Below, in pieces: positions 52,301-55,300 of a stretch of DNA of 64,000 nucleotides (positions are counted from its first letter, which is position 1; each line of letters begins with the position of its first letter). Location: assembly GCF_000026545.1 (NCBI RefSeq), contig NC_011601.1, one strand, 5' to 3'. Made by a program: the position numbers. The DNA comes from Escherichia coli O127:H6 str. E2348/69. GTDB taxonomy: Bacteria; Pseudomonadota; Gammaproteobacteria; Enterobacterales; Enterobacteriaceae.

Positions 52301-55300
52301 TCTGGTGGATCATCTCCAATTGTTCTGGTGAAAGGGTGCTAAAGAAGGCTTCACCACCTATCCACACTGAGGTATTTGTCAGGTAGTTAACCATTGTCAG
52401 ATATCTTGCCTGCTCATACAGTTTTTGCCCTTGCAGCACTGAAATTGGGTTTTCTACGCCGTCAATAACGCCCTGGGTTAATGCGGGATAAACTTCGCCT
52501 AATGGCATGGGAGTTGGTGTTGCCCCCATCGCCTGAATGGCTTTTATTTGCATGACGTTATTAGGAACGCGAATTTTTAAACCTGCGAGATCGTCAACGG
52601 TGCGAATGGGTTTTTTCGAAATAATCTGTCGAGTGCCATAGAGATAATTATTCATTACCACATGAATTCCCTTTTTCTTCAGACTTTCATTTTTTTGTTT
52701 AAACCAGTCGCTTTCATATATTTTGAACAGTTTTTGCGGATCGTCAGTCAGATACGGTCCAAACAAAATCCCCAAATCGGGTTCATAATCGGCAAGAAAA
52801 GCCACATCACTCAAGGTTATGACATTCATGCCCATCATGGCTTGCTCGGTGACATCCTGTTTTGATCCCAATTGGGAGCTGGGATAGAGCGCAAGTGTTA
52901 TTTCGCCATTACTTTTTTTATTTAATAGGTCTGCCCAGTAACGCATGACCACATCCAGGGGTTCTCCAGGGTTATTTTCATAGGCAACTTTTATTGAAAT
53001 AGGTTTTGCCTGGATTATTGACGGTAAAAAAAGGTACTGACAGTAATTAGCATCGCTATTATTTTGCTCATCTTTACTTACTCCATGCTAAGGAAATAAA
53101 ACTCCAACATTGTTGTCGGGAGTGAAACCTTATGAAAAAGCAGTCATTACTGAAAAGTAGTCAGCGAATAGCAGAATGGCTGCAGATGTATCATAAATTC
53201 GTGCACCGGGTAATACTTTGCTGCTTTTAATCGGTTTTTAATGCATTTTTTGATTGTATATCTTAAAGTTATGTAATGCATGACGTTACAAGGAACACCC
53301 TCTGATGAGTTTAGTTATCGCAGATAAGATCTCTTATTCGGTTGATGATTTATTAAAAATAAAATCATTAATTTGGCTGCGGTCATTTTTAATTGTCAAT
53401 ACAGATAAAAACTAAGTGTTGACGCAGAATGGTGGTATCCATTAAATTTATTTAGTGCTGATTTAATACATTTGCTGAACGTATAATTCATGCTGATGTT
53501 AAAAGAAAGCCGTCATTCACTAAATAACTTGTTCGGCAAGGAAATCAGAGAGTAACGGATGATTCGTTACAACGGGGAAAGGTAGTAAATATTCACATGG
53601 TGAATTTGTTATCAACTTGAAAACTTATTTTACTGGGTTCCTTCTGATCATGTGAGTGAACGCAGTGATTAATGATTAACGTTAAGTGCTAACCAGAGCG
53701 CTTTTTATGAAGTTAAATTAATAATATCCATTATTTATGAATGAGGAAGCCTGTTTATTATATGGAAATACTTTTAACAATTTTAATTCTTACGTTGGTA
53801 GTATCATTAACCAGCGTGCTTACACGTCTGTCTCCTGTCCAGATACCACTTCCTTTAATCCAGATTGCCGCTGGTGCAGTACTGGCCCAGCCTATATTTG
53901 GTCTGCATGTGGAATTCAATCCTGAACTTTTTCTCTTATTGTTTATACCACCCCTGTTGTTTGCTGAAAGTTCAAAAATACAACCTAAAGAATTGATCAA
54001 GCACAGCCGGGAAATTATCAGCCTGGCACTTGTGTTGGTACTAATCACTATTTTTGGTGTCGGCTATGTGATTCATTTACTCTTACCGAATGTGCCGCTC
54101 ATCGCTGCTTTCGCATTAGCCGCCGTGTTGTCGCCTACCGATGCCGTGGCGTTGCTGGGGATTGTCGGGAAAGGGCGTATCAGCAAAAACATCCAGGAAG
54201 TGCTCGAAGGCGAAGCGTTGATGAATGATGCTTCCGGCCTGGTGGCGTTGAAATTTGCTGTTGCAGTGACGATGGGAACGATGGAATTCAGCGTTCATGG
54301 CGCAACCATTGCGTTTTTTGTCGTTGCGTTGGGCGGTATTGCCGTGGGGATCGCTGTTACCTGGTTATATGGTAAAGGGCTGCTGTTGATCAGCCGATAT
54401 GCTCACGATGAACCTTCCATTCAGATTGTATTGATGCTTCTGTTGCCGTTTATTGTTTATCTGGTTGCGGAACATTTTGGCTTATCTGGCATTCTTGCCG
54501 CTGTCGCCGCGGGGTTAACAACCAGTCGCATTGGCGTAGTCCACCACGCGCCTATTCGCCTGAGAATTAAAGCTAAAAGTAGCTGGTCGATGCTTGAATA
54601 TGTCTTTAACGGCATGGTGTTTCTGATTTTAGGCTTACAACTGCCGGGCATTATTTCGGAATCACTGATCCGTGCAGAAAACGATCCACTGGTGGACACC
54701 GGATCGCTGCTCCTTAATGTCATTTGGATCTACCTGGCGTTAATGGTTGTGCGCCTGGGCTGGCTTTGGCTGATGCGTCTGTATAGCCGTAAACGACCCG
54801 GCAAACATCCGATGCTGTTTGCTGGATATAAAACGCGTCATATGCTGCTGGCGACCTTTGCGGGGGTGCGCGGAGCTATCACGCTTGCGGGGGGGCTTTC
54901 TATCCCGTTATTGCTGCCGGATGGCACACCTTTTCCCGGGCGTTACTTGCTGGTATTTCTCGCCACAGGTGTGATCCTCTTTTCGCTGGTTTGCGGCATT
55001 ATTATTCTGCCGTTATTACTGGGGAAAAATGTGGGGATTTTCAGCGATAACCGACAAAAAGAAGAGGAAGCTGCCGATCTGTTTATGGCTAAAATGGCCA
55101 TACTGAGTGTGCAAAAGACCGAGCAACGTTTGCTGCGCGCCAGAACAGAAAACCTCGATAACGAGTTGATTATGGAAACGGGGGCCAGAGTTATCGGTTA
55201 TATGCGACATAGTGAAGAGGATATGTCGCCTAATGATAATTCCCTGCATATGCAGCGTGCGAAGCTGGAAAGAACATTTAATCTGGCGGCGTTAAATGCC

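Follow-up and report, generated by a model that had tools for sequence, protein, structure and literature searches.

Why does a gene for a secreted transporter protein carry its signal peptide in one reading frame and its mature domain in another? This question is raised by dctP, the gene for the substrate-binding protein of a tripartite ATP-independent periplasmic (TRAP) transporter, which lies on the minus strand of a 64,000-nucleotide stretch of Escherichia coli O127:H6 str. E2348/69 (contig NC_011601.1 of assembly GCF_000026545.1; this whole stretch is called the window below). A preliminary description had offered three explanations: a slipped-strand ON/OFF switch, a pseudogene or a homopolymer sequencing error. 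We are confident that an inherited one-base deletion, brought about by homopolymer slippage, has made dctP a recent pseudogene which is fixed in the lineage of E2348/69. The anatomy of the sequence, the census of alleles, the agreement between assemblies and the lack of recoding signals were each observed directly.

The start region of dctP consists of the following elements, given from 5' to 3' of the gene:

53084-53081, minus strand: Shine-Dalgarno sequence GGAG, 9 bases 5' of the ATG, read directly and the same in intact orthologues
53071-53069, minus strand: ATG start codon of dctP, read directly
53015-53071, minus strand: residual open reading frame (ORF) of 18 codons, MSKIIAMLITVSTFFYRQ, with its TAA stop at 53017-53015
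53033-53034, minus strand: CC dinucleotide before the T run; the majority allele has CCC, and the C or T at the polymorphic site sets the run to T7 or T8 (alignment and translations)
53026-53032, minus strand: T7 homopolymer (A7 on the plus strand), the frameshift site, read directly
52101-53025, minus strand: frame of the DctP mature domain, out of frame with the ATG at 53071 (PF03480, PDB entry 4OVT, RefSeq and ORF walk)

The residual ORF codes for the n- and h-regions of a signal peptide and then continues with out-of-frame residues. The preliminary description was right about the start codon, the good ribosome-binding site and the short peptide that runs into a stop; the peptide is, however, three codons (YRQ) longer than the end at ...TFF given there. 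The run of seven A on the plus strand is likewise as described. In an ORF walk the mature frame, which encodes ...LPSIIQAKPISIKVAYENNPGEPLD..., was found to be open from 53087, directly after a TAG at 53090-53088, to its stop at 52103-52101. As had been claimed, it extends upstream without a start codon: no ATG, GTG or TTG occurs in this frame between 53087 and 52952. Start codons first appear with a GTG at 52952 and then an ATG at 52946; the longest ORF with a start codon is the one from the GTG (52101-52952). Since there is no in-frame start before the GTG at 52952, a signal peptide cannot be supplied to the mature domain.

Addition of one T to the run gives an ORF of 323 amino acids, in which MSKIIAMLITVSTFFLPSIIQA is followed directly by KPISIKVAYENNPGE.... 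Judged by eye, the first part of this restored protein is a plausible Sec signal peptide with a lysine at position 3 (K3), a hydrophobic core and IQA followed by K. A Sec signal peptide joined to a DctP domain is not present in the window and was encountered only in the restored alleles, that is, with CC followed by eight T (CC-T8) or CCC followed by seven T (CCC-T7). Homopolymer runs of at least 7 nt are common in the window (34 in number, two of them within dctP), so the significance of the T7 run rests on the comparison with orthologues and not on the run itself.

The identity of the protein was assigned from the restored sequence. Residues 33-307 match the Pfam family PF03480 (DctP) with E=1.1e-65, and a KIRVP motif was recognized by eye in the mature frame. 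The closest solved homologue in the PDB is 4OVT (E=6.9e-147), followed by 4O8M (E=2.4e-80); both structures reportedly come from the Vetting et al. 2015 screen. The gene resembles those of such DctP-family sugar-acid binding proteins of TRAP transporters in its PF03480 domain, its restored signal peptide and the adjacent dctQ and dctM genes, but differs from them in that, in the window, its domain is cut off from the signal peptide and from the first ~18-20 mature residues. Literature text searches on 4OVT and on pseudogenes of E2348/69 returned nothing relevant; their coverage did not extend to the genome paper (Iguchi 2009) or to the Vetting 2015 screen.

The decisive comparison is that with other E. 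coli strains. Out of 5426 complete genomes, 858 contain dctP, and these were used for a census of the tract. The probes, among them CCC-T7, CC-T8, CC-T7, CCC-T6 and CCC-T8 but not CC-T9, were shorter than 100 nt, so that the band of at least 99% identity is in effect an exact match; a few partial matches of 100% identity also land in this band and were allowed for in the count ranges.

CCC-T7: about 817-819 genomes, intact (…STLFLPSIIQA)
CC-T8: 26 genomes, intact (…STFFLPSIIQA)
CC-T7: 9 genomes, frameshifted, from at least two lineages
CCC-T6: 1 genome (strain A20), frameshifted
CCC-T8: 0 genomes
other tract allele: at most 2 genomes, unclassified
5'-truncated dctP: 3 genomes

Full-length dctP is thus in frame, as a single ORF, at about 843-845 of 855 loci (~98.8%). 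We had considered plain T8 as the general intact allele and dropped this idea, as most genomes showed one difference from both the 7-T and the 8-T probes; the sequence of strain 1105, which is CCC-T7, revealed the majority allele. This usual allele, found in ~96% of the E. coli orthologues, likewise has seven T and stays in frame through an additional C. It is correct that adding a nucleotide to the run puts the frame right, and CC-T8 is the natural counterpart of this in 26 genomes, but the usual intact allele has the same T7 and one more C. Orthologues with the same 7-nt tract do exist, as the preliminary description had considered; they use the same ATG, not a different start, and are in frame. 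The restored protein of 323 amino acids occurs verbatim on at least 1000 public contigs, and the mature frame of the window has not decayed further, both of which point to a recent lesion.

The CC-T7 allele was found repeatedly. The window is 100% identical to the E2348/69 assembly sequence over 1.3 kb and over two 24-kb stretches, and CC-T7 is present in three assemblies derived from E2348/69, namely CP059840.2, LT827011.1 ('variety 2') and LT903847.1, which has been engineered. Further carriers are CABEEY01, which is close to E2348/69 but not identical to it (3 differences in 3.8 kb), H588 and CP163840. A second CC-T7 lineage comprises MS20657 (blood, Finland) and the five cerebrospinal fluid (CSF) isolates N17, N24, N39, N47 and N64. 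The complete-genome set contains no close relatives of E2348/69 beyond its own three assemblies. The protein-cluster table lists the truncated product of 281 amino acids on 344 contigs, and the assembly collection has it in 589 blocks. For most of these blocks the longest contig with the product measures at most 200 kb, as is typical of short-read assemblies. With CC-T7 recurring in the three E2348/69-derived assemblies and in related strains, a sequencing error is not supported. Signal peptide and mature domain are truly uncoupled, and of the three explanations offered beforehand the pseudogene is the one that is supported.

How could the deletion have arisen? The divergent outgroup haplotype NT1F34 (2.4% different) carries CCC-T7, which indicates that this allele is ancestral. 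The ancestral tract would then be ...GTA CCC TTT TTT TAC..., read as ACC CTT TTT TTA (Thr-Leu-Phe-Leu). A C-to-T transition in a minority B2 haplotype would have changed it to ACC TTT TTT TTA and lengthened the run from T7 to T8, and replication slippage would afterwards have dropped one T from the T8 run to give CC-T7, probably more than once. In an alignment of 6.2 kb from 16 strains, the CC-T8 strains A37 and N1420 are the nearest intact haplotypes to both E2348/69 and the MS20657/N clade, and differ from the frameshifted clades at 3-4 sites within 1 kb on either side of the tract. The two frameshifted clades are separated from each other by 7 sites in the same interval and by 31 sites over the 6.2 kb. 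In a second alignment with more loci, CC-T7 and CC-T8 strains are interleaved, and over 3.3 kb only one site distinguishes CP163840 (CC-T7) from N1420 (CC-T8). Haplotype proximity and the mutability of run length favour CC-T8 as the intermediate. A C-to-T change followed by loss of one T is likely to be the true order, being the most economical history. Four single-nucleotide polymorphisms (SNPs) at 53318-53390, at first sight confined to the frameshifted strains, were tried as a sign of a single origin of the frameshift and were rejected, as this haplotype is common (221 genomes at 99% identity or more) and occurs with both intact alleles.

Several points weigh against our interpretation. The CC-T7 call rests on assembled sequences and not on raw reads. 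The three E2348/69 assemblies come from one strain and attest a reproducible call, not independent biological origins. Loss of one C would likewise lead from CCC-T7 to CC-T7 in a single step, and the CC-T8 intermediate is not proven; moreover, local trees are blurred by recombination in E. coli. Finally, it is possible that ribosomal or transcriptional slippage on the U7 run yields traces of full-length DctP, although nothing indicates that this happens.

Among the alternatives to simple decay we considered that the change from CCC-T7 to CC-T8 creates a 'premutation' hot spot, and that loss of the TRAP system has been selected repeatedly in B2 pathogens (enteropathogenic E. coli (EPEC) O127:H6 and a neonatal-meningitis clade), perhaps with occasional reversion. 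The tract would then act as a slow, selection-driven switch and would not reflect neutral decay. We regard this as very improbable.

Leaky recoding would leave some function to the gene. Here a -1 shift of the ribosome on the U run, or an RNA polymerase adding a U, would give some secreted full-length DctP. Runs of U and A are known slippage sites for both ribosome and RNA polymerase, and if tRNA-Phe slipped by -1 on UUU UUU and UUA were read next, the product would be identical to the protein of the CC-T8 allele. The 0 frame, ACC UUU UUU UAC, with C UUU UUU / U UUU UAC as its context, is however not a canonical X XXY YYZ heptamer, and seven residues are fewer than efficient slippage of the E. 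coli RNA polymerase requires. The split arrangement in two frames is not conserved either, given the single ORF in ~98.8% of the orthologues. A search for a frameshift-stimulating RNA structure was negative: the 106 nt that start shortly before the run have no stabler fold than shuffled sequences (z=+0.44; 137 of 200 shuffles at least as stable). Programmed frameshifting was rejected for the lack of an in-frame canonical heptamer, of a downstream structure and of conservation, and leaky recoding as a whole seems to us very improbable.

The slipped-strand switch of the preliminary description would be a contingency locus at which T8 (ON) and T7 (OFF) cells are mixed within one strain and the TRAP system is toggled. 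Like the contingency loci of Neisseria, Haemophilus and Campylobacter, dctP has a homopolymer in its 5' coding region whose length sets the frame, and gain or loss of a single base is enough to turn the gene ON or OFF. OFF alleles occur in several backgrounds among the CC-T8 strains, CP163840 beside N1420 being an example, and 9 of the 35 genomes of the CC-T8/CC-T7 group are OFF. Unlike in those loci, the tract is short (7-8 A/T) and shows neither heterogeneity within lineages nor a spread of lengths across the 858 genomes. Its length is fixed in each lineage: the three E2348/69 stocks are alike, and so are the six isolates from the MS20657/N clade. The census gave just four alleles, CCC-T8 being absent and at most 2 of the 858 genomes unclassified, with CC-T9 outside the set of probes. 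Behind CCC the T7 run is invariant in ~817 genomes, and no case of reversion was seen. In mismatch-repair-proficient E. coli, A/T runs of 7-8 nt mutate orders of magnitude more slowly than phase-variable tracts. A switch is not supported and seems to us very improbable.

A sequencing or assembly error concealing a true genome with eight T or CCC-T7, and hence an intact gene, has practically no probability left and was already largely refuted: homopolymer miscalls are common in long-read assemblies and some public frameshift alleles are suspect, such as that of A20 with its second frameshift in dctM and those of the CCC-T6 clade from the protein index, which sits on megabase-size long-read contigs, but CC-T7 is identical in three separately deposited E2348/69-derived assemblies, recurs in CABEEY01, in H588 and in a separate record series with MS20657 and the five CSF isolates, and in most blocks with the truncated product the longest contig carrying it is 200 kb or less.

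In strain A20, dctP has CCC-T6 and a T5 run in dctM has gained one T; dctM is annotated as 'frameshifted' (locus L036, 2501-2596 and 4025-5096). Two homopolymer indels within 3.3 kb may reflect either real decay of the operon or errors of a long-read assembly. In view of this second frameshift and of the long-read contigs, the CCC-T6 alleles were not counted as solid evidence of hypermutability.

The annotation does not show the frameshift. In E2348/69 RefSeq gives a coding sequence at 52101-52946 (846 nt, 281 amino acids, WP_001271106.1; H4J01_RS21200 in CP059840.2), which RefSeq/PGAP names 'C4-dicarboxylate TRAP transporter substrate-binding protein' without a pseudogene or frameshift flag. 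The truncated ORF is likewise unflagged in MS20657, the N-series strains and A20, and dctP is annotated as a coding sequence of 972 nt in other strains.

The genes surrounding dctP are as follows:

51564-52037, minus strand: dctQ-like small TRAP permease, intact (PF04290, E=5.5e-31; annotation)
50296-51567, minus strand: dctM-like large TRAP permease, intact (PF06808, E=1.5e-109; annotation)
53762-55414, plus strand: Na+/H+ antiporter, divergently transcribed (PF00999, E=9.3e-64; annotation)
55585-56490, minus strand: lgoR-like GntR regulator, context (annotation; comparison with K-12)
56629-57651, plus strand: lgoD, L-galactonate oxidoreductase, context (annotation; comparison with K-12)

The permease genes are the next two ORFs after dctP, and the stop of dctQ overlaps the start of dctM. 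The antiporter was found in every TRAP-bearing locus examined and moves with the operon as one module. Nowhere else in the locus are SNPs as dense as in the divergent promoter region between dctP and the antiporter (53072-53740, 670 bp), which accounts for ~22 of the variable sites when nine strains are aligned, including a block at 53306-53390.

For the pseudogene we predict the following consequences. Translation from the normal ATG would end after 18 codons. As the mature domain has no start upstream of residue 41, at best a cytoplasmic product would be made, lacking the signal peptide and roughly the first 18-20 mature residues. The start of the mature domain in 4OVT aligns to positions 24-38 of the restored protein, NVSIKVAYENNPGEP, and the truncated ORF starts at residue 41 or 43; residues 24-42 (KPISIKVAYENNPGE...), which form the N-terminal strand, are thus missing. 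TRAP transporters strictly need their periplasmic binding protein. Because of this dependence the system should be inactive in E2348/69, and TRAP uptake is probably abolished. Early termination in dctP probably also lowers the expression of dctQ and dctM through polarity.

What the transporter imports is suggested by its position. In K-12 the slot between tsr and lgoR/lgoD is occupied by lgoT (yjjL; locus L032, 7362-8723), whereas the window has the TRAP operon and the antiporter there (50296-55414). Among the complete genomes, 4520 of 5426 carry lgoT and 858-867 the TRAP module, the two being almost mutually exclusive. LgoT, the L-galactonate:H+ symporter of K-12, belongs to the major facilitator superfamily; it shares the chromosomal slot with the TRAP module but is from an unrelated transporter family, and the TRAP module brings an Na+/H+ antiporter in addition. 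The alternation in one slot is a hint at an L-galactonate-like substrate, and gene position and neighbourhood suggest uptake of L-galactonate or a related sugar acid by the TRAP system.

Other strains have lesions of their own at this locus. In PK5074 (locus L010, 4288-5090) an IS1 element adjoins dctP at codon ~41, with GGAGTCATTACC meeting GATGTGGTCATG at the junction, and an IS1-mediated deletion has eliminated lgoR and the antiporter together with the 5' end of dctP and part of lgoD. Two short contigs, a metagenome scaffold and a Logan read assembly (L034 and L035), have this IS1-dctP junction at their 5' ends. IAI39 and N32 (L021 and L022; 5865-6338 and 250-1272) have internal stops in dctQ and lgoD, both of which are RefSeq pseudogenes, together with an intact dctP. 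The IS1 deletion and these nonsense mutations are independent of the frameshift and suggest relaxed selection on the locus.

Two further observations concern the neighbourhood. Near the C-terminus of Tsr (3' region of tsr, window 50170-50200) a glutamine run in the linker before the NWETF pentapeptide shows a repeat-length polymorphism in steps of three codons (9 nt), with 4 residues in K-12 and EC28, 7 in E2348/69, 95-3322 and 2022H047, and 10 in MS20657 and SC455. Upstream of yjiA (window 42000-45000, compared with 2200-4900 of L016-L018) the gene content varies, and a variable defence island adjoins the locus: E2348/69 and its nearest haplotypes have a gene for a 3'-5' exonuclease; in MS20657, N64 and 2015C-4136CT1 the region contains a restriction endonuclease together with a BrnA antitoxin and hsdR/hsdM remnants.

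The mechanism by which dctP became a pseudogene is not new. Lineage-specific pseudogenes of Enterobacteriaceae caused by homopolymer indels share with it the loss of one base in or beside an A/T run, the premature stop, the intact gene in most strains, the lesion fixed in a clone and the presence of other lesions of the operon in other lineages. In nothing essential does dctP differ from them; the only twist is the prior C-to-T change that would have lengthened the run from 7 to 8. It offers a tidy example of the concept that gene loss becomes likelier once a synonymous-looking substitution has extended a homopolymer. For the annotation it follows that the 281-amino-acid entry of E2348/69 should carry a frameshifted-pseudogene flag. 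If our reading is true, E2348/69, the prototype EPEC strain, has lost this uptake route and, with the TRAP module in place of lgoT at this locus, is predicted to be unable to import the substrate of the transporter, possibly L-galactonate or a similar sugar acid, which would be relevant to metabolic models and to studies of gut colonisation.

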